A stretch of DNA of 61,012 nucleotides. Source: a virus (Duplodnaviria; Caudoviricetes). Both the position numbers and the translations under genes were made by a program. Positions within the stretch are counted from its first letter, which is position 1. Each line of letters begins with the position of its first letter. The notes beneath the pieces were generated by a model. It searched no databases, was not told where the DNA came from, and was given only the letters and a program-made list of their open reading frames with translations. Shown in pieces: positions 1 through 61,012 of the stretch. The stretch spans positions 1 to 61,012 of IMG/VR virus record IMGVR_UViG_3300025120_000004. One strand, 5' to 3'.

Positions 1-127
1 GGACAAAATCAAGTACATCTTTTGAAAGGGCAGGAGTAACGACTATAGATTTTGATCCTATAACAACTGCTTTAAGAGCTACAAGAAATACAGGAATGGA
101 TTATTTTATGAGTAATGAAATATCTAC
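1..127. repeat. Terminal direct repeat copy 1 (assembly circularity overlap)
   Basis: 1-127 is identical to 60886-61012; 127 nt equals a common maximal assembler k-mer and the repeat lies mid-gene. Confidence 0.95.
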
Positions 128-1778
128 TACTAGACAATCGATGGCTTCTTTAAAAAGAATTACAAAAAATGATGATTCTAAAACAGATAAACAGCAAGAC
201 CAATTAAATCAAGCTGTATTAGATTTAAATACAATATATAGCGAGGCTCTAAATAACGTTGTTACAAACAACATGAGTAGTACGGTATTAGGGGGTAAGT
301 GGTGGAATTACTTCAAAACTTTAGGATATTATTCAACGTTAGCATCTGTTCCAAGAGCTGGAGCGGAATACGCATCTAACCTTACTTTTGCTGCACTATC
401 AGCTCCTGGAGAATTTAGTTTAGGTGCGACAGTATACGCAGATCTTTCTTGGAACAACAAAGGAAGGGCTGTTGTTGAAAATGTAGCATCCACGAACAAC
501 ACAAAATTATATTCAGATGAGCAATTAGGTGGTTCAAAAGCAGATTCTCAGGGAGTTACAAAAAAGAAATCTTCTCCTGAAGCTAGAGGCAAGGCAGGTC
601 AAACATTTGAATATGTTGTAAGAAATACAGGAATAAAATATGTTCCAAAAGTAGTATCAAAAATAGGTGAAACATTAGTTACGAAGCCTGACCAAATGAT
701 AGCACGACCTTTGTGGTTTGGTACTTTTGCAAAAACATTTAAAGCGGAAACAGGTTCAAAAGTAGATTTTGATAAAATAGCTGATAATGATTCAGACTAT
801 ATGAACAAGTATAAAGATGCAATTCAAAAAGCAACATCAAAAGCAGACAATAATGTAACTATGGCTGCCACATCAAATGACCCATTTTCTTCGGTGTTAA
901 AAAACCAAGTCCAAGAAGGGGAGAGTGGGATGAATTTCTACAGAATGATAAACGGATATATGTCTAGATTTAGTCTTAATGAATATGCAACTGCTAGACA
1001 AGCGGTAGCCTCAATGACAGGACAAGGACAGTTAGGAGTAGTTAAAGGTGCGTCAACATTAGCAGGAGTTGGAGTCAGAATGTCTATGTATGTAATGCTA
1101 TTAAGATATCTAAACGGAGCAATGTTTGGAATGCTAGGTATTGGAGATGAAGACGATACGGATTATGAAGAATTAGGTATTCGACAAGGCGTAGGAGCTG
1201 TTACATCATTAATTACAAGAGGTGTATCTGGAAACATACCAATGATTCCGATGAACTATGCCATAGAGTCTTTAAATAAAGAGTATGGATATGATATAGG
1301 GTTAAGGTCAAAAGAAGAGTATAATGGTATGGAAGACGCTCTTGTATACGCTACTATAAATCCATCTAATGCTTCAAGAAATTTAGAAGAAGCTACATTG
1401 ATGCAATTGACAGGCCCTTTTAATCCTTACTTCAAAGCAGGATTTAGAGTTGCCAATCTAACAATTAGAGCTTTAAATAATAAAACAGAAGAAAGTAGAC
1501 AAGAAAATCTAAACAAATTATTTTCAAGTAGGACAGGTATTGAAGTAGCCAATCTGATTGGAGGCGTACCTTTTTATAGAGATATAAGAAAAGGATTCTT
1601 GGAAGAAGAATTTAAAGAAGATGATACAACTGTACCTTTTACTTTAGAAGAATTGAAGATTTATGACTCTAAAGAGTACAACATACAAATGAAACAAAAA
1701 AAAGCACCTAAAAGTCGTGACGAGTTAGATATAGAAAGAGAGCTAAAGGCTTTAGAAAAAGAATTAGAAGATTTATAA
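1..1778 (+). CDS. 3' part of giant ~2500-aa internal virion/ejection protein (starts at 55161, crosses the junction)
   Basis: ORF 96..1778 is in the same frame as ATG 55161 after removing the 127-nt overlap; last gene of the structural arm. Confidence 0.8.
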   Translation, partial: TKSSTSFERAGVTTIDFDPITTALRATRNTGMDYFMSNEISTTRQSMASLKRITKNDDSKTDKQQDQLNQAVLDLNTIYSEALNNVVTNNMSSTVLGGKWWNYFKTLGYYSTLASVPRAGAEYASNLTFAALSAPGEFSLGATVYADLSWNNKGRAVVENVASTNNTKLYSDEQLGGSKADSQGVTKKKSSPEARGKAGQTFEYVVRNTGIKYVPKVVSKIGETLVTKPDQMIARPLWFGTFAKTFKAETGSKVDFDKIADNDSDYMNKYKDAIQKATSKADNNVTMAATSNDPFSSVLKNQVQEGESGMNFYRMINGYMSRFSLNEYATARQAVASMTGQGQLGVVKGASTLAGVGVRMSMYVMLLRYLNGAMFGMLGIGDEDDTDYEELGIRQGVGAVTSLITRGVSGNIPMIPMNYAIESLNKEYGYDIGLRSKEEYNGMEDALVYATINPSNASRNLEEATLMQLTGPFNPYFKAGFRVANLTIRALNNKTEESRQENLNKLFSSRTGIEVANLIGGVPFYRDIRKGFLEEEFKEDDTTVPFTLEELKIYDSKEYNIQMKQKKAPKSRDELDIERELKALEKELEDL

Positions 1779-40184: not shown

Positions 40185-41285
40185 ATGGAAATTAAAGTAA
40201 AATCATTAGATTCTGTTCCAGAAAAATCTGTGCAGGAAGTAGAAGAAACTCTACTTAAAAAACACGAAGAAGAATTGAATGATAAATCTGACGATGTTGT
40301 TGAAGAGCAGCCTGTAGAAAATTTATCAGAACAAGTTGAAGTTGAAAGTCCAACTATAAAAGACGAAGACGTTCTTTCATATATTAAAAATAGATATAAT
40401 AAAGATATATCTTCAGTTGATGATTTGTTTGCTGAAAGAGAGCAATCAGAAAGTTTACCAGAGGATGTATCAAAATATTTAGATTATAAAAAAAACACAG
40501 GGCGTGGATTTGAAGATTTCGTAAAAATAAACAAAAATTACGATGACTTAAATGAAGACCAGGTGTTATCAGAGTATTATTCTTTAACAGAATCAGATTT
40601 AGATAATGAAGATATTCGTTATTTAATGGACGAAAAGTTTTCGTATGATGAAGAAATTGATGACGAAAATGAAATAAAGAAAAAGAATATTGCTAAAAAA
40701 AGAGAACTTTCAAAAGCTAAAAAGTATCTTAATGATGTAAAAGAACAATACAAAATTCCTCTTGAGTCAAGTGGGAGTTCGTTGTCTGAAGATCAACAAA
40801 AAGATATTGAAGCTTATAGAAGTTATATAGAAGAATCTAAATCTACTTTAGAGGCTCACGAAAGAAAAAATAAATTTTTCTTAAAGAAAACAAATGAAGT
40901 TTTTAATCCTGAATTCAAAGGTTTTGAGTTCAATGTAGGAGATAAAACCGTTAAGTATTCTTACGGTGATGTTAATGAAATGAAATCTAAGCAAAGTGAT
41001 TTAAACAATTTAGTCAAAAAATATGTTGACGACGATGGTTTGATTTCAAATGCTAAAGGGTGGCATACAGCATTAAGTGCTGCTATGGATCCTCAAAGAT
41101 TTGCTAATTATTTTTATGAGCAAGGTAAAGCTGATGCTATAGAAGATGTTACTAAAAAAAGTAAAAACATTAATATGAGCATGAGACAAACTCCTCAAGC
41201 AATTGGCGACACTGGATTTAAAGCTAGACCAGTTTCAGATACAAGTGGAAAAGGATTAAAAATTAGAAGTAAAAAAAATAGTTAA
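40185..41285 (+). CDS. Putative capsid scaffolding protein
   Basis: Acidic and helical, between portal and MCP; FYEQGKADA. Confidence 0.6.
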   Translation: MEIKVKSLDSVPEKSVQEVEETLLKKHEEELNDKSDDVVEEQPVENLSEQVEVESPTIKDEDVLSYIKNRYNKDISSVDDLFAEREQSESLPEDVSKYLDYKKNTGRGFEDFVKINKNYDDLNEDQVLSEYYSLTESDLDNEDIRYLMDEKFSYDEEIDDENEIKKKNIAKKRELSKAKKYLNDVKEQYKIPLESSGSSLSEDQQKDIEAYRSYIEESKSTLEAHERKNKFFLKKTNEVFNPEFKGFEFNVGDKTVKYSYGDVNEMKSKQSDLNNLVKKYVDDDGLISNAKGWHTALSAAMDPQRFANYFYEQGKADAIEDVTKKSKNINMSMRQTPQAIGDTGFKARPVSDTSGKGLKIRSKKNS

Positions 41286-53238: not shown

Positions 53239-55161
53239 ATGGGAAATAAATTAGATTCAATAAGATATGCATTAGGTCAAGGCCTTACAGGTGTAGCAAA
53301 GCCAACAAAAACTTTAGAGGCTGTTGATAATTTTGTAGAGGATGTAGAAGCTTGGAAAAAAAACATAGACGATCAACGTCTTAAGTTAAAAACTGATACT
53401 GAAACAAAAGTAAGAGAAGCTGAAAAAGAAGCTTATGCTAATTTACCTAATACTAAGACAGAAAGAGACCTTGTAATACAAGGTCTAGCTAATTATAAGG
53501 ATATGCTTTATAATAATATGTCTATGGTTCAGAATGGTGTTTTAAAACCAGAAGATAATCTTATATTTCAGGAAAACGGAAAGCAATCATTTGAAATAGC
53601 TGCTGATTTAATAAATAACTATAGCACTAGAAAAGAACAAGCCATGAAAGAGGCTAGTGGATATTATGATGATGAAGGAAATTTTGTAGAACCTACAGCA
53701 GGAGATTATCAAGCTGCTCTTCAACGAATAAATGATGAGTTTATGATTCCAGGGGGACAGGAATTTAAATTTATGAGCAATGGAATGGGTAATATTACTA
53801 TGTTCAAAACTAAAATTGATGAAGAAACAAAAACAAAAGTTTTAGATTTAGATGCTGACGGAAATCCAATTCCAATAGAGGGTCTGTCTAACGTTCCTAT
53901 GTTAGCTTATCAAAACAACAGAAATGCTAATGCCCCTATGTTCGTTCTTGCTAATGAGGTTACTAAGTTCACAAGAAAAGATGGTCTTTTAGCTACTTCT
54001 TATCAGGAGCTGATTGATGTTGAAGGCATGGTGGGTGGTGTTAAGGATAATATGAGTCAAAGCCCAGGGTTTCAGGAGTCAGTAAAACAGGCATCAAGTT
54101 CTCTTACTAATACTGTTCCTAAAGTTGTTAGTATGTTAGCAGACAATGGACCTGATGCACAACAAACAACAACATTGACTCCTTCAGAATGGGATGCTTT
54201 ATCTGATGCACAAAAAAACGAAACTATATCTTTTGAATATACTGATTTTGATGGTTCAACTAAAAAAGGAGTTAAAAGTAAATATCTACAGGTTAAGCTT
54301 GCTACTAATAATTCAATGGTCGCTGTACTAAGTGACCGAGATCAATTGGCAGCAGAACAAATAGCACAGACAGCTCTTATATCTTCATTAGAGCAAACCA
54401 TAGACCCAGGAGTAAAGGTTGGTGATTTCGCTGCACGAGTAGACCCAAACAAGGATAAGCAAGTAGATACTTTTACACTTATTGACCAAGTAGTGATAGA
54501 TGGAAATTCCAACAGCTTAGAAGCTATAGTTAGGCAAGACCAAAATATAAATGATTACAAAGTTACTAAAGAAGGTATTGTCTTTGTAAAGACAGATGGA
54601 ACTCTAACAGCTCCTATTGACGTTAGCTCAGGTTCTGCTGTTGATGTAGGTAAGCTGTTTGCTTCAGAGCTAGGATATAATGCAGAAACATACGCTAATA
54701 AATCTAAAGCAGGCTCAGTAATTATTAACACAAAAGTTAAAGATTTCACAGGCTTTACGTCTCCTAGAGAAGAATACGGAGGTCTAGGTAGATTAGCTAT
54801 TAGTAAGGATAAAAATAAAATTACCTATGCGTCTGAATATATTAAAAAAGCTGATGAAAGATTGATGGCAGCTCAAGCTCAGGTTGTAGTTGATAAGGCT
54901 CGTGCAAGGTATGGGAATATACCTAATATAAGAGTAAGTTTTGATGACTTATCTAAGCCGAATGGAGAAGATGAGATAAATCTAACTATAGATGGAGTGA
55001 AATACAAAAACGTAGGTTATACATCAGATAATTATCAATGGTTAATGGAGAATATAGATAGAGCGTTAATAGGAGAAACACCAGAGGGGAAAATTAGTGG
55101 AGGTAGTACAAATAGTGGAGGTGGAGGTTTAGATAATCTAGGTAAAAAAGAAGGTGAATAA
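53239..55161 (+). CDS. Internal virion/ejection protein (640 aa)
   Basis: Position between small and giant ejection genes. Confidence 0.55.
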   Translation: MGNKLDSIRYALGQGLTGVAKPTKTLEAVDNFVEDVEAWKKNIDDQRLKLKTDTETKVREAEKEAYANLPNTKTERDLVIQGLANYKDMLYNNMSMVQNGVLKPEDNLIFQENGKQSFEIAADLINNYSTRKEQAMKEASGYYDDEGNFVEPTAGDYQAALQRINDEFMIPGGQEFKFMSNGMGNITMFKTKIDEETKTKVLDLDADGNPIPIEGLSNVPMLAYQNNRNANAPMFVLANEVTKFTRKDGLLATSYQELIDVEGMVGGVKDNMSQSPGFQESVKQASSSLTNTVPKVVSMLADNGPDAQQTTTLTPSEWDALSDAQKNETISFEYTDFDGSTKKGVKSKYLQVKLATNNSMVAVLSDRDQLAAEQIAQTALISSLEQTIDPGVKVGDFAARVDPNKDKQVDTFTLIDQVVIDGNSNSLEAIVRQDQNINDYKVTKEGIVFVKTDGTLTAPIDVSSGSAVDVGKLFASELGYNAETYANKSKAGSVIINTKVKDFTGFTSPREEYGGLGRLAISKDKNKITYASEYIKKADERLMAAQAQVVVDKARARYGNIPNIRVSFDDLSKPNGEDEINLTIDGVKYKNVGYTSDNYQWLMENIDRALIGETPEGKISGGSTNSGGGGLDNLGKKEGE

Positions 55162-58100
55162 TGGAAGAGTTATATAATGCACTTGTTGAACAAGGAAAAT
55201 ACACAAAATCTTTTGAGGATTTTAAAGTACAGTTTGGAGAGCCTGAAAAAACTAAACTTCTTTATGATGCATTAAATTCTTCAGGAGATTACACTAAATC
55301 TTTTGAAGACTTTACGTATCAATTTGGATTCGCTGAAAAAAAAAATCAAGTCGTTACTCCTTCCACTTCAGAAGAGGTCGTTACGGAATCCACTACAGAA
55401 ATCACGCAACCAACAATTCCTGGCTCTTCGGATTCTTCCGAAAATATTCCTGATGTACAGATTGAAAACAATGTAGAAATTAAAGAGGATTTAGAAGTTA
55501 CAGATATACCTGAACAAAAATACTCTAATGAGTTATTTGATGAATTAACTTCTCAAGTACAAATAGCTCAACAAATAAATACCGAACAAAATAAAAGAAA
55601 CTTTTATAAAAATAAAGCTGAATCTTCTTTTGTTAGAAGAAAACCGAAACCAAAAAAGAAAAATCCTGATGCCTTATTAGAAATAGATAACGATTTAAAA
55701 GAAAAAATATTAAGCGATTTTAATATTAGAAAATCTATTGAATATGGAATTGTTAGCGAAACAGATGTAGATAATGCTCTTAAAGGAGATATTAATTTAA
55801 TAAATAAATTAAAAGAAATATCTGTAAAAAATCCAAAGGAATACAAAAAATTATTAAGCGAAAAAAGATTAGATAAAACTTATGCTTTTGAAGAAACATC
55901 TGAATTAAATGAATACCAAGTTAATCAAGATGAAGAATCTAGAAGTTTAGATTTAAAGAAAAAGATTGAAGCTTATGATTTAGAGACACAAAGACTTTTA
56001 GCTGAAAATCCTAATGCAACTGAACAAGAAATAAATGAATTAGTTTATAGGCCTAACGACCCTAACACTTATACAGATGAAGAATTTGAAATTTATGAGA
56101 ATATGGATTATTCTCCAACTGGATTTGAAGATTCTAACATACATAAAATGTATGACAGTGAAAAGTTAAAGTCAATTGAAGGATTTAATGTAAAAGATTT
56201 TGATGGGTACTTAAAAGAGCAGGGATACATGGACAGATACGTGGAGCTTCTTGATGACGAAACTATATCTGAAGATGGAAGATATCAAGATTATTCAGGG
56301 AACTACAATCCAACTCTTGCAGCCGAAAGATTAAAAGCACAATATTTAACAAACTACATAAATAATCAAGTAGAAAGAAATGTAGAGTTTCAAGTTTTAG
56401 ATTATCAATTAAAAAATAAAGGCCGACACCCTTCTTTAGATGGTGTAGAAATTAGTTTTAATACAGGGGTAGATGATATTGCTATGGCTTCTTACATAGA
56501 GGAACAATTTCCTACATTAACTGCAAAGCTTAAAAACCAAGATGTTGAAAATCAAGAAAACTATCAAAGATATTTAGATGGAGATAACCCTTGGTTTACA
56601 CAATCGGTAAAACAAGGTTGGCGTTCTGTAGAAGATAGATTACATAGCTCTTCTAAAGGAGTTTATGGATTTATTGGAATGAATAGTGTGGCTGATGAAA
56701 TACGAATGCGAGATGCTCAAGATGATTTAGAGAGAGATGATTTTATGAGATATGCATATACGTCAGGTAAAAAATCTTTTTATAATGGTAGAGAGTACGG
56801 AATAGATGAAAGAGGTCAGATATTTGATTTAGAAATAAAGAAAAACGTAACAAACGTTTTAACAGATACTATGGCTGATGCTATAAGAAAAAAGGTAGCT
56901 GGAAGCAGTGAGACATTTAAAAGTTTTAGTGGCTCAGGTACGGTAATAGCAACAACAGGTATAGCTGCTGATATGTTATTGCAAATATCTCTTACTCGTG
57001 GAGTAGGTAATTTAGGTAGAGGTGGTGCGGCTTTTTTAGGTAGTTTCGATAAAGGTAAAAAAGTTGTTAGTGGATTATCTAGTATACCAATGAAAGCAAC
57101 TACAGCTTCGGCTATGATTGCTCAAGGAACATTATTTTCAACTAATTTAGCTAGTAGCACTTATGACCAGGCTATTGCTAATGGATTAGATCAAGCTACA
57201 GCTATAGAACTAAGGCAAAAGGCAGGTATGCAGGGATTTGGATTAGGGTCATTAACAGCTCCAATATCTACACAGACTCTAGCCATGAATAAAATATTTG
57301 GTAAAAAGGGAACTGAAAAACTAAGTAGAGGACTTGTTGATGCTTATCAAAAAGCAGGAGATAAAGGTTTTGCTGCATACATTCAAAGGGTTAAAGGAAC
57401 AATAATACAAAACTATCCTTCTTATTTAAAAGAAGGAGGTAAAGAGATATTTCAGGAAAATGTACAGCAGGCAGGTCAAGCTTTTGTGATTGCAGAAAAT
57501 GTAAATGAGATTGCACAAAAAGAAATAATGAATAACACCATTACAGGTGCGGAGTACACAAACACAACAATACTAGCAGGTCTTGCAGGTTTATTAATGC
57601 CTTTTGGTGGTGATCTTAAATCAGCCACATCTAAATCTATTAAGGCTAACTTTAGTCCAGGGGAAGCCGCAATTGACAGATTAGAAGCTTTACATGGTTT
57701 ATCTAAAGATGTAGATAAAACAAAAGAGTTTTTAAATAGTATGGTAACCAAAGGTGTTTATACTGAGGAACAAGTTTCTAATCTATTGTCTGATATTGAT
57801 TTGTATGTAAACACTATAAACAGTATACCAACAAACTTGAGTCCTGAAACTTCATTGTTTGTAATGCAGTCAATTAACGACATTCAAAAACAAGAGGAGT
57901 TAAAAAAGAAAAGAGATAAATCATTTCATCCAGAGATAGATGAAAAAATACAAGAACTTAGAAACGAAATAACAACACGAACTCAATTTGATTATGTTAA
58001 TGCACAAGGCAAGTTAAGGCTAAAGGACCAAGCAGCCAAAGAACTTACTAGAGAAGCAGAAGAAAGAGGAGAAAAGAATTTTACTATAGATGATGGAGCT

Positions 58101-61012
58101 ATAACTCAGAGAGCTGTAGACAACTTTAGTATAATGGATGTAGATGAAAAGTTAGAATATACAGACTTAAATAAACAAGATTTAAAAACCGATAAAAAAC
58201 AAGACGATGCCATTCAAAAGCCAAGCACAGAGGAGCAAGTGTTACAAGATGATGCAGGAAGCGAAAAAGAGGGGGGAGACTCCCAAGTGGAACTGCGACA
58301 AGTGGGAGAAGGAGACATTGAGTCAGACACTACCCAAACGAAAGAAGAAGAAAGTGAAACGCAAACCGATACAACTAGCGACACGACTACGCAGACAGAT
58401 ACTGAACAGTTAGTAACTGAAGAGACATATACGCTACCTGAAACAGAAAAGGGGAGGGAAGAAGACTTTGAGATTATAGACAATCGACAAGGTAAAGCGG
58501 ATCTAGAAATATTTGAGGATGGTGAAGGAAAATGGTATGTTGAAAACAAAAAAACAGGTAGAACTGTCGCACTTAGAACAAAGGCTCAGGCTAAGGCTGA
58601 AGTAAAAAACCCAACTTATGATTATGGTGAGGGAGATGTTATTCAGGTAACTCAAGAAACAACTAAATCAACACCTTCCCCCACAGTAGACACATCCACT
58701 GATGAGGAAGTGATGAGTGTGAACAATAAGATTGAGTCATTTGCAAATCGTATTGTTGAAGGAGGAAATCAAGAATCTTTTTCAGATGATGCAATTCAGT
58801 TTTATGCCGAAAATAGAGAAGCAATTGATAAAGCCGTTGCTCAAAAGAAAAAGAATATTCCTAAAGATAAGTCACGAGAAAGAACTTTAGCTATCAAAAT
58901 TGCTAGAGGAGATACAGAGTTCAGTAATGCAGATATAGATTTATACGCAGGTTCTGAAGCTGATGTTCAAGCTGAGGTAGAAGCTATTGCTAAAACAAAT
59001 AGTCAAACCGTAACAGCCGACACATACAAAGCCATATTAGCTTCAACAAAAAGCACTACCAATAAAGATATGGCAAAGCCTGAAACGGAAAATGCACAAA
59101 GAAAAAGATTTTGGAAATCGTGGAATCAATCTGCTAAAGAAAAGAAAATGGACTTGAAGCAGAAAAGAAAAAGTCTAAATGATGGTATAAAAGCCTATGC
59201 AAAAAAGAGAAAAGGTAAAATTACTGTTCCTCAACTTAGAGCTGTTTTAAACAAAATAAATAATGAAAAATTCAATTTAGATAATCCTGCTGCTGTCAAA
59301 GAAATTCAGCAGTATGTAGAAAAAGTTTTTTCTGATGCAGATTTTGCAAATGATATTGATATAGCAAACAAACTAAAAACAAGAGCTACTAAAAAACTAA
59401 ACTCAGGGAAACTAGGAGATAACGGAAACTTAAATGGAGCTGTGTCTCAAATAATTTTAGCTCCTGTAACTGATTTAACTCCTTCTCAACTAAAATCATA
59501 CAATGAGTTTTTACAAAAAATAGCTAAACGAGACAAAAAAACAAAATTAGATAGAGAGTTAATTCAAGAAGCAAATGATTTACTTAACTCTATAACTCCT
59601 AAGGCAGAAACTGAACAGGCGCTAGCTAAAATTGAAAAGCAAAAAGAAAGTGATAAAAAAGTAGTAAATAAAATTCTTAACCCAGAGGTAAGTGGAGAAA
59701 CTATTATAGAAGAAAACTCTGATTTCATTCAAAATAAATTAGATGCTTTAGACTCTGGCACATTAGAAATTCTTGTTGATAAAGTAAATGCAGCAGAAAA
59801 CGAAAGCAACTCAGAGCTTGTTCAAGAGTTAAATGATTATGCAGAGAATAGACAAAAGCTTATAAATAACACTACTAAAAAGTCTAGAAACGTAAACTTA
59901 AATAACCTAAGCAAAATTTCTTTAGAACAAAGTGTTGGCCCTAGAACTTTAAAAGGTTTAAATAAAGGTCAGTTAGCGATGCTTACAGGAACAGAGCTTT
60001 CTCAGCTAGATGTTTATTTAGATAATATGTCTGAAGGTTTTTATACTCATTTCACAAATAATATAGCTCAAAAAGTAGCTGCTAATGATAGGTCTGTTAA
60101 TATGAAACCTATTTTAGATAAAATGTTTACAGTAAAAGGTAAGTTTTCTACCATGAGACAGTATGCAGCTGCTAGTGTAAAAAATGAATTAGGAAAGGTT
60201 GGCTTTGGTTCTTCAAAAGCGGCTAGACAGATAGGTATTAGAGGTCAAATGATTAGGTCTAACCCACTAAGTGTCATGGATCAAATGTTTGGGAACTATA
60301 AAAACAATACTATATATGAAAATGCTATACGACCTACTGCACAAGCGCACGCTAGATTTAAAAATTGGATTAACGGACAGACTGATACTATTGATACAAT
60401 AGAGTCTTTAATAGCACCTAGTAGAACAGAAGGTATAAATCAATCGGTAAAAAGAAGATTTGAATTAACGACATACTTGCTACAATTAGAATATGAATCT
60501 AACCCAAACAAAAGGGGAACTAACCCAGCTATAAAGTTTATAGAAGATACTATAGACAGATATAATTCTGATAAAAGAGGTAGTAAGTATAATGAAAATA
60601 GTATAGCTATACTTAAGAAAATAGCAAAACAGTACAGTCAGAATGGGCAAATATCTCTCAAAAAGATGGATGATGCTATGTCTACAAAAACTAAAAAAGC
60701 ATTAAAACTATTACAAGGCATTTATTCAGGTTTAGGAGAGCTTCAATCTTATGCAACTAGAATTGTTAGAGGTAATGAACTTGACTTAGTAAATAATTAT
60801 GTTCATCATAAAGCGGATTTTAAAGGTGAAGAAATAGACGATGCTAATTTTCAAAACGCAATAAGTTTTTTAAGTTTGAAGCCAGGGACAAAATCAAGTA
60901 CATCTTTTGAAAGGGCAGGAGTAACGACTATAGATTTTGATCCTATAACAACTGCTTTAAGAGCTACAAGAAATACAGGAATGGATTATTTTATGAGTAA
61001 TGAAATATCTAC
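55161..61012 (+). CDS. 5' part of giant ~2500-aa internal virion/ejection protein
   Basis: ATG overlaps the previous TAA; MEELYNALVEQGKYTKSFEDF...; no closed ORF in the track implies the frame stays open to the window end; continues to 1778. Confidence 0.8.
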   Translation, partial: MEELYNALVEQGKYTKSFEDFKVQFGEPEKTKLLYDALNSSGDYTKSFEDFTYQFGFAEKKNQVVTPSTSEEVVTESTTEITQPTIPGSSDSSENIPDVQIENNVEIKEDLEVTDIPEQKYSNELFDELTSQVQIAQQINTEQNKRNFYKNKAESSFVRRKPKPKKKNPDALLEIDNDLKEKILSDFNIRKSIEYGIVSETDVDNALKGDINLINKLKEISVKNPKEYKKLLSEKRLDKTYAFEETSELNEYQVNQDEESRSLDLKKKIEAYDLETQRLLAENPNATEQEINELVYRPNDPNTYTDEEFEIYENMDYSPTGFEDSNIHKMYDSEKLKSIEGFNVKDFDGYLKEQGYMDRYVELLDDETISEDGRYQDYSGNYNPTLAAERLKAQYLTNYINNQVERNVEFQVLDYQLKNKGRHPSLDGVEISFNTGVDDIAMASYIEEQFPTLTAKLKNQDVENQENYQRYLDGDNPWFTQSVKQGWRSVEDRLHSSSKGVYGFIGMNSVADEIRMRDAQDDLERDDFMRYAYTSGKKSFYNGREYGIDERGQIFDLEIKKNVTNVLTDTMADAIRKKVAGSSETFKSFSGSGTVIATTGIAADMLLQISLTRGVGNLGRGGAAFLGSFDKGKKVVSGLSSIPMKATTASAMIAQGTLFSTNLASSTYDQAIANGLDQATAIELRQKAGMQGFGLGSLTAPISTQTLAMNKIFGKKGTEKLSRGLVDAYQKAGDKGFAAYIQRVKGTIIQNYPSYLKEGGKEIFQENVQQAGQAFVIAENVNEIAQKEIMNNTITGAEYTNTTILAGLAGLLMPFGGDLKSATSKSIKANFSPGEAAIDRLEALHGLSKDVDKTKEFLNSMVTKGVYTEEQVSNLLSDIDLYVNTINSIPTNLSPETSLFVMQSINDIQKQEELKKKRDKSFHPEIDEKIQELRNEITTRTQFDYVNAQGKLRLKDQAAKELTREAEERGEKNFTIDDGAITQRAVDNFSIMDVDEKLEYTDLNKQDLKTDKKQDDAIQKPSTEEQVLQDDAGSEKEGGDSQVELRQVGEGDIESDTTQTKEEESETQTDTTSDTTTQTDTEQLVTEETYTLPETEKGREEDFEIIDNRQGKADLEIFEDGEGKWYVENKKTGRTVALRTKAQAKAEVKNPTYDYGEGDVIQVTQETTKSTPSPTVDTSTDEEVMSVNNKIESFANRIVEGGNQESFSDDAIQFYAENREAIDKAVAQKKKNIPKDKSRERTLAIKIARGDTEFSNADIDLYAGSEADVQAEVEAIAKTNSQTVTADTYKAILASTKSTTNKDMAKPETENAQRKRFWKSWNQSAKEKKMDLKQKRKSLNDGIKAYAKKRKGKITVPQLRAVLNKINNEKFNLDNPAAVKEIQQYVEKVFSDADFANDIDIANKLKTRATKKLNSGKLGDNGNLNGAVSQIILAPVTDLTPSQLKSYNEFLQKIAKRDKKTKLDRELIQEANDLLNSITPKAETEQALAKIEKQKESDKKVVNKILNPEVSGETIIEENSDFIQNKLDALDSGTLEILVDKVNAAENESNSELVQELNDYAENRQKLINNTTKKSRNVNLNNLSKISLEQSVGPRTLKGLNKGQLAMLTGTELSQLDVYLDNMSEGFYTHFTNNIAQKVAANDRSVNMKPILDKMFTVKGKFSTMRQYAAASVKNELGKVGFGSSKAARQIGIRGQMIRSNPLSVMDQMFGNYKNNTIYENAIRPTAQAHARFKNWINGQTDTIDTIESLIAPSRTEGINQSVKRRFELTTYLLQLEYESNPNKRGTNPAIKFIEDTIDRYNSDKRGSKYNENSIAILKKIAKQYSQNGQISLKKMDDAMSTKTKKALKLLQGIYSGLGELQSYATRIVRGNELDLVNNYVHHKADFKGEEIDDANFQNAISFLSLKPGTKSSTSFERAGVTTIDFDPITTALRATRNTGMDYFMSNEIS
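58207..58413 (+). CDS. Overprinted small basic protein (MPFKSQAQR...) in +1 frame of the giant gene
   Basis: A-rich start context, protein-like sequence, local codon anomaly in the host frame. Confidence 0.55.
   Translation: MPFKSQAQRSKCYKMMQEAKKRGETPKWNCDKWEKETLSQTLPKRKKKKVKRKPIQLATRLRRQILNS
58707..58726 (+). repeat. Dispersed motif copy (GAAGTGATGAGTGTGAACAA)
   Basis: 58711-58725 is identical to 13131-13145. Confidence 0.75.
60886..61012. repeat. Terminal direct repeat copy 2
   Basis: Identical to 1-127. Confidence 0.95.

Follow-up and report, generated by a model that had tools for sequence, protein, structure and literature searches.

The window analysed here is a 61,012-nucleotide stretch of DNA from a tailed phage (Caudoviricetes; positions 1 to 61,012 of IMG/VR record IMGVR_UViG_3300025120_000004), and its last part carries most of a giant gene of the virion module. 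We propose that positions 58207..58413 (+) form a true dual-coding segment, in which a small gene of 68 codons, with an ATG start and a TAG stop, overlaps the giant gene in its +1 frame, and in which the acidic linker that the giant gene reads from the same bases is the shadow of the small gene. From comparison of sequences we put the probability of this reading at roughly 0.86. The shadow (58206..58412, +) comprises residues 1016-1084 of the giant protein, joins its N- and C-terminal parts, and reads DAIQKPSTEEQVLQDD..., with the small open reading frame (ORF) at offset +1. The small peptide has a net charge of +16.5 and an isoelectric point (pI) of 10.8, with Lys or Arg at 22 of its 68 residues, and the host-frame segment on the same bases has a net charge of -17.2 and a pI of 4.05. 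The share of host codons that end in G or C is 39% over the overlap (n=70) and 18% over the remaining gene (n=1880). A first-pass annotation, made from the letters of the window, had described a 68-residue ORF at offset +1, an A-rich region before it, an acidic host linker rich in G/C-ending codons, and products of opposite charge from the same DNA; these descriptions, including the translation that it quoted, all hold.

Judged on the window alone, the small ORF is only mildly unusual (P 0.012-0.038), since the stretch is poor in T (11.6%, against 26% for the giant gene) and stops are therefore scarce. Its open run of 75 codons is the longest in the +1 frame of the giant gene, the second longest being 66, and when the host protein was held fixed and its codons were resampled or shuffled, an ATG-started ORF of at least 68 codons arose in 1.2-3.8% of 20,000 trials. 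Such figures would suit a chance ORF, that is, a T-poor acidic linker that is stop-free in other frames and has an ATG at its start by accident: a +1 stop needs a host NTA or NTG codon, which is rare in a hydrophilic linker, and T stands at host codon position 2 just 9 times in the 77-codon stretch. The same purine-rich stretch also leaves open an antisense ORF of 111 residues with a TTG start (window 58214-58549, -), which is most likely a composition artefact, because antisense stops require T on the + strand. The weight of evidence for the small gene comes from relatives. There, 74 loci whose host flanks differ widely all retain the ORF together with its ATG and its residues, substitutions concentrate at the third codon positions of the small gene, and free-standing homologues number in the thousands, so we find a chance ORF hardly credible.

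Conservation and selection in the two frames

A six-frame search of GenBank phages with the peptide returned 69 records, namely 68 Flavobacterium Elemovirus isolates and one uncultured phage. The Elemovirus match is a 42-residue ORF starting MPFKS, in the +1 frame of a gene for a 3,695-residue annotated structural protein; its differences from the window sit at third positions of the small frame, and it is unannotated in all 40 records listed of the 69 matches. When only the giant protein was used to find loci, all 4 of the 4 retrieved had the ORF in the same place and frame. A profile built from these peptides added 79 viral loci, which brought the first set to 85 MPFKS ORFs (the window and 84 loci). 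Seventy-four of these lie wholly within a long ORF, always in its +1 frame; the long ORFs are of two kinds, 26 of at least 1,037 codons and 48 of 180-445 codons, six of the latter cut by a contig end. The remaining 11 are not covered by any long frame.

A second, host-found set of 80 loci was retrieved only through the C-terminal domain of a different protein, encoded between the portal and a capsid-like gene and called here the scaffold-position protein. The peptide profile (E<=1e-3) is matched by an alternative-frame ORF in 65 of the 80 loci, in frame +1 every time, and alternative-frame ORFs of at least 25 residues total just 68 in the set, where the scan took ATG-start ORFs by construction. 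The strict pattern MPF[KR]S occurs in 47 of the 80, and variant N-termini (MPFKH, MPFKN, MPFQS and MPLKS) are also seen; about a dozen loci carry no copy of the two-frame segment, or cassette. The ATG was found in every intact cassette copy, and neither it nor the open +1 frame is lost from any such copy that shows the host-frame motif D/N-A-V/I-Q, a check of the kind that the first-pass annotation had proposed.

Selection on each frame was estimated with our own OLGenie-style counts, in which differences were sorted by their effect in both frames, on 31 phylogenetically separate pairs per set, with the downstream host region and its phantom +1 frame as control. In the first set the overlap gave 0.231 (0.174-0.295) in the +1-frame test (dNN/dNS) and 0.712 (0.59-0.84) in the host-frame test (dNN/dSN), and the downstream control gave the reverse, 0.705 for the phantom frame and 0.245 for the host frame. 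Because the first set was derived from the peptide, the test was repeated on the host-found set and the result held, with 0.281 (0.178-0.397) and 0.705 in the overlap and 0.671 (phantom frame) and 0.201 in the control. The most variable codon position moves from host position 3 in the control (0.272) to host position 1 in the overlap (0.205), which is the third position of the small gene. Among the six sequences of the window's clade, variable columns number 13 of 43 in the core when read as peptide and 23 of 43 when read as host; in the C-terminal tail the figures are 9 and 15 of 24. Purifying selection on the alternative frame exceeds what the host frame would impose, by this home-made estimator with its controls. 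Within the overlap, selection acts on the small frame and not on the host frame, whose sequence there looks barely constrained, no more so than a phantom frame; this is the pattern that the central proposal of the first-pass annotation, a real basic protein with the acidic linker as its shadow, would lead one to expect.

The host frame is nonetheless open, and both frames are open beyond chance. With random synonymous codons for the peptide, the -1 frame would be open with a mean probability of 0.00025 and a maximum of 0.004 per locus, yet all 74 embedded loci have it open and none of the 11 free-standing ones does. T-ending codons account for 7% of codons in embedded copies, 15% in free-standing copies and 35% in host genes. 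Phe3 is encoded by TTC in 100% of the embedded loci, since TTT would create a host TAA stop, and by TTT in five of seven free-standing copies. Lys is encoded by AAG at 67%, against 24% in host genes, so that runs of Lys become runs of Glu in the host frame and the shadow is acidic rather than basic. The host frame is thus held stop-free through codon choice in the small gene; both frames are kept, with sequence constraint restricted to the small one.

These observations bear on the possibility that only the small gene is real and that the giant ORF is two genes seemingly joined by a linker open by chance. Host-frame constraint in the overlap is indeed close to nil, and in two loci described below the small gene stands just past the stop of a gene of at least 1,294 residues. 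Chance openness of below 0.004 per locus is, however, hard to reconcile with 74 open loci of 74, in which the flanking parts always share one frame; T-ending codons and Phe TTT are avoided in embedded copies only, and the excess of Lys AAG gives the linker its acidic character. We consider two separate genes extremely unlikely and retain the dual-coding segment.

Probable start signal of the small gene

The likely initiation region of the small gene (58187..58206, +) is A-rich, lacks a Shine-Dalgarno (SD) motif and follows the upstream profile of relatives. In the window A stands at -3, -5, -6 and -8 to -13; the +1 frame is shut by a stop ending at 58185, and the first start codon thereafter is the ATG at 58207. 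Across 64 unique embedded loci A is found at -13 in 98%, -12 in 94%, -11 in 89%, -6 in 89% and -3 in 80%, an SD-like tetramer is present in one of the 64, and the upstream adenines are maintained across two unrelated host genes. No special RNA structure surrounds the start, where the minimum free energy of -4.6 kcal/mol does not differ from that of shuffled sequences (z -0.07). In Flavobacterium johnsoniae, adenines at -3, -6, -12 and -13 stimulate initiation by ribosomes that ignore SD sequences (Baez et al. 2019, PMC6847099), and the upstream adenines of the embedded loci coincide with the determinants given there. The small gene therefore has its own start codon and a signal suited to a host of the kind that we infer for the window. 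Because the signal is A-rich, the SD motif is lacking, the region is unstructured and the +1 frame is closed upstream, independent internal initiation at ATG 58207 is the best reading of how the small protein would be made.

Frameshifts are used by phage structural genes, and a programmed ribosomal frameshift out of the giant gene would yield a truncated protein of about 1,015 residues with a basic tail rather than a free 68-residue protein. The window has six consecutive A at -13 to -8 from the ATG, and we found nothing direct in favor of a frameshift. The closed +1 frame leaves 7 codons alone in which to shift, and relatives have scattered adenines as their consensus in place of an unbroken run; the upstream profile of relatives has no conserved slippery run, with no search aimed at frameshift sites made. 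Moreover, Met1 is kept in 259 of 271 aligned family sequences (the others being 11 gaps and one Leu), and most family members start at residue 1 of a called protein. A frameshift product is highly improbable on these grounds, and internal initiation is preferred.

The 5' end of the small gene is conserved as nucleotides across otherwise unrelated sequences. The stretch occurs in contigs from marine RNA libraries, and RNA-library contigs whose flanks are unlike on both sides match nothing but an island of about 40 bases (window 58193-58235), with a depth spike on the island of 405 in one run. In Elemovirus a near-exact second copy (one mismatch) of a stretch of about 30 bases, covering the upstream region and the first six codons, lies in the same giant gene 396 bases upstream (L001:5589-5622, against L001:5985-6018), where it opens an ORF of 10 codons only (MPFKSKKLMK); this copy may act as a decoy start, be left over from recombination, or repeat a motif of the host frame. 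Both the island and the second copy would be expected if the conserved entity were a host-frame motif (D/N-A-V/I-Q ... VLQ ... EVGLQEVG), recognizable between both host classes, or an RNA or DNA element, and the +1 ORF an untranslated by-product. Against this stand the selection tests, in which the host frame of the overlap (0.71) proves no more constrained than a phantom frame and the +1 frame is strongly constrained, and the 11 of 11 free-standing loci in which the peptide is present and the -1 frame is closed. The paired residues C-C, F-V and M-A described in the next section make sense at the protein level only, and the lack of RNA structure around the start also speaks against an RNA element. 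A by-product of this sort seems very unlikely to us, and we keep to a translated small gene.

Besides the modest improbability from the window alone, several points weigh against the dual-coding reading. The first set was retrieved with the peptide itself and carries an ascertainment bias, which the host-found set addresses in part, as loci without a profile hit were excluded from its selection test. The estimator is home-made and lacks a correction for multiple hits, its pairs were picked greedily as nearest neighbours, and its phantom-frame baseline is 0.67-0.71, not 1, so that the contrast with the controls is the only thing that counts. Within the host-found set, 14 of 80 scaffold-position genes have no profile match, which means that a given site can do without the small gene, and a further locus (L191) is borderline with E 0.0019. 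In two of the 14 (L180:986-1117 and L192:998-1090) a trace of the cassette is still visible in the host frame; the +1 frame is without family features in the first and without a start and N-terminus in the second, and both look like decaying copies whose host linker survives. A Bacteroidota host is established for Elemovirus alone, and the RNA-library data are assembled contigs, which show neither starts, strand nor frames. Finally, the family has neither a library entry nor a function-bearing structural match, so that the activity proposed below is drawn from charge and shape.

The small protein and its family

By comparison of sequences, the product of the small gene belongs to a large family of small basic proteins that has no name as yet, the MPFKS small-protein family, defined here by its profile. 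Stand-alone proteins of this kind, to which the first-pass annotation had pointed, turned up in large numbers: an exhaustive profile search gave 3,193 cluster representatives at E<=1e-3, of which 221 at E<=1e-10, and a second profile search gave 2,049 unnamed proteins of 20-140 residues. The 3,193 representatives are mostly free-standing genes or N-terminal modules, with matches nearly always at residues 1-50 of proteins 43-1,143 residues long. The window peptide scores E 3.2e-26 against the family profile, a value that is partly circular as the peptide is included in the model. Pro2, Phe3, Lys4, Ser5, Gln8, Trp33, Thr37, Leu42 and Pro43 are near-invariant, each kept in 254-267 of 271 aligned sequences, and P2, F3, S5, Q8, W33, T37, L42 and P43 are all found in the window peptide. 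Residues 12 and 30 vary together: Cys12 and Cys30 occur as a pair in 55 of 55 sequences, with 11.3 expected if they were independent, and the pairs F-V and M-A occur in 109 and 35 of 267 sequences. Since the small gene is so widespread as a free-standing gene, it is probably the older partner of the two frames.

An AlphaFold2 model of the small protein (mean predicted local distance difference test score, 85) has helices at residues 6-22, 30-36 and 55-66 and a Lys/Arg-rich stretch at 44-54, that is, a helical hairpin, a basic tail and a third helix. Neither the peptide nor its relatives nor either host class hit anything meaningful in Pfam, PHROGs v4 or NCBIfam, where the best rows were sub-threshold and due to chance, and a word-based protein search with the single peptide gave no candidate. 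Searching solved structures by sequence with the family profile gave nothing (best E 1.5); Foldseek of the model against the PDB gave 0 matches, a wide VIA structure search reached Z 2.8 at most, on a generic helical hairpin, and a BFVD search returned uncharacterised viral proteins alone (best E 3.2e-3). We found nothing on this gene in the literature as far as its accessible text goes; a supplementary proteomics table may still mention it. By language model, the nearest Pfam-carrying viral clusters carry DUF3008 (PF11450), with scores of 0.82 (68% of members) and 0.86 (10%) that lie under the tool's threshold of 0.9. Membership in DUF3008 was rejected, as the window peptide and 15 relatives have no Pfam hit to it at E up to 0.1-10, and the kinship is a sub-threshold lead.

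We suggest the following mechanism. The giant gene, or the scaffold-position gene in related phages, would read through the small gene in the -1 frame, turning its Lys-rich sequence into a Glu-rich disordered linker, because AAG AAG read one base earlier gives GAA. The small protein would be initiated internally through an A-rich, unstructured, SD-free region of the kind that Bacteroidota ribosomes use, and would be made late, from mRNA shared with the virion genes. It is predicted to fold as a short helical hairpin followed by a basic tail, and this fold and charge would suit binding to nucleic acid or to acidic virion proteins, which is the weakest step of the scheme. A virion-associated or DNA-binding role, suggested by the model, is tentative, and the odds are somewhat against it.

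Free-standing copies of the small gene are located between other ORFs. Of 79 copies in bacterial genome bins, 64 are free-standing ORFs, 49-97 residues long, on contigs mostly labelled Acidobacteriota. Six embedded bin copies have less than 50% G+C, five of them (L090, L092, L093, L132 and L155) in bins labelled Bacteroidota and the sixth (L096, 46% G+C) in a bin labelled Actinomycetota; nine more apparent embeddings are in loci of 60-71% G+C, a composition at which long open frames often arise by chance. The contigs that carry some of the free-standing copies (MPFKSQAQRRKFAQLLVEGKIS... type; L098, L103, L110 and others) reach 4.6 Mb and are labelled Acidobacteriota, Gemmatimonadota and others, so the family is not restricted to phage contigs.

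The same module of about 50 residues also stands at the head of much longer proteins (P0023, P0050, P0069, P0110 and P0045). Several of these also contain DUF5661 and have long tails, rich in Gly, Gln and Asn, that end in hydrophobic segments; a NUDIX domain is present in one long module-headed protein. In P0097 and P0112 the module is internal and its Met1 is replaced by Ala. The MPFKS segment of about 50 residues behaves as a portable N-terminal module.

Host genes of the cassette and comparison with known systems

The first 1,950 codons of the giant gene occupy 55161..61012 (+) of the window, listed as ORF 55161..61010. The window has an exact terminal repeat of 127 bases (1-127 and 60886-61012) and is a complete genome, 60,885 bases when circularly closed; by this repeat the giant gene wraps past the record ends and continues at 128..1778 (+), the last ~550 codons, within a 5'-open ORF at 3..1778, with frame continuity taken from the coordinates. 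The two parts joined give a protein of about 2,500 residues. Complete open runs of 2,208-2,577 codons are found in giant-gene relatives L002, L004, L007 and L008, and the Elemovirus counterpart of the gene is annotated "structural protein"; a DNA search of GenBank phages with the 3' part of the giant gene gave nothing. The giant gene, called an ejection gene in the first-pass annotation and placed here only as a gene of the virion module, ends a module that comprises the large terminase, the portal, the scaffold-position gene, the capsid-like gene and other virion proteins.

The scaffold-position gene of the window (40185..41285, +), between the portal and the capsid-like gene, is homologous to the cassette-bearing genes of about 400 residues in relatives, which sit between the same two genes. 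The C-terminal 280 residues of the latter match residues 84-364 of the window protein at 37% identity (E 1e-63). The window gene has no cassette and no relic of one, and its +1 frame is full of stops. The hosts of about 400 residues and the giant protein have in common the overlap segment only. Five records searched whole gave one cassette match each, and a complete relative of 65.6 kb has the cassette in its scaffold-position gene and none in its giant gene. The two-frame segment thus occupies different genes in related phages. A third placement, besides those in the middle of the giant gene and in the scaffold-position gene, is seen in L021:1-4174 and L032:114-4174, where a free-standing small gene lies 2-3 bases past the stop of a giant gene of at least 1,294 residues (phrog_32588 in L021) and is followed by genes on the opposite strand.

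A more specific proposal is that the segment is a relocatable two-frame cassette, consisting of the small basic protein, with a start signal of its own, and of an acidic disordered docking site for it in whichever virion gene receives it. It would fit the single match in each of the five records, the alternative host genes, and the acidic shadow given by the choice of Lys AAG although the host sequence is nearly free. Prediction of a complex between the peptide and host residues 1000-1100 scored 0.00, which is no answer and says nothing either way on binding. We regard a docking cassette as improbable; if it were true, moving the cassette among scaffold-position, giant and free-standing sites would re-route the small protein within the particle.

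Out-of-frame nested genes are already known in phages. In phage lambda and its relatives, Rz1 is a small gene wholly inside the larger gene Rz, in its +1 frame, and both products come from one late mRNA, with Rz1 having its own internal start. The small gene of the window is similarly nested in the +1 frame of a larger phage gene with an internal start of its own. The lipoprotein Rz1 bears a signal peptide and a lipobox, whereas the window peptide is without any hydrophobic stretch; Rz and Rz1 are lysis genes, whereas the hosts here are virion-module genes, and the embedded gene here is widespread, also free-standing and probably the older partner. An embedded o-spanin of the Rz1 type was rejected by inspection, from the start MPFKSQAQRSKCYK, the lack of a hydrophobic segment and the 22 Lys or Arg residues in 68.

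In phiX174, the lysis gene E is overprinted in the scaffolding gene D and is a young gene that arose de novo. There, as here, out-of-frame coding falls in a morphogenesis gene, with one frame well constrained and the other of low complexity or disordered. The relative ages differ: gene E is the newcomer of its pair, whereas the small gene comes from a family of thousands and the host linker would be the young frame. Also unlike phiX174, the same cassette is found in two unrelated host genes within one phage lineage. The closest likeness is to Elemovirus (Flavobacterium phage vB_FspP_elemo), which has the same kind of linker in its giant "structural protein" gene and a cultured Flavobacterium host; its peptide is shorter and lacks the C-terminal helix of the window version.

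What is new here is a conserved family, thousands strong, without a Pfam, PHROGs or NCBIfam entry; an apparently old embedded gene within a new host linker, the reverse of the textbook direction of overprinting; and the same two-frame segment in two unrelated morphogenesis genes of one marine phage lineage. Gene callers that bar nested ORFs will overlook the small protein in hundreds of marine phage genomes. As Elemovirus on Flavobacterium is a cultured system in which a knock-out silent in the host frame is possible, the biology is directly testable.

Contigs from RNA libraries, in three runs altogether, carry one or the other of two joins in the linker downstream of the small gene. In one, 58424 is joined in frame to 58692, with 267 bases skipped; in the other, 58412 is joined to 58707, also in frame, with 294 bases skipped and 21 other letters between. 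Both joins begin directly after the stop of the small gene, and the length of the host linker 3' of the cassette thus differs among strains.

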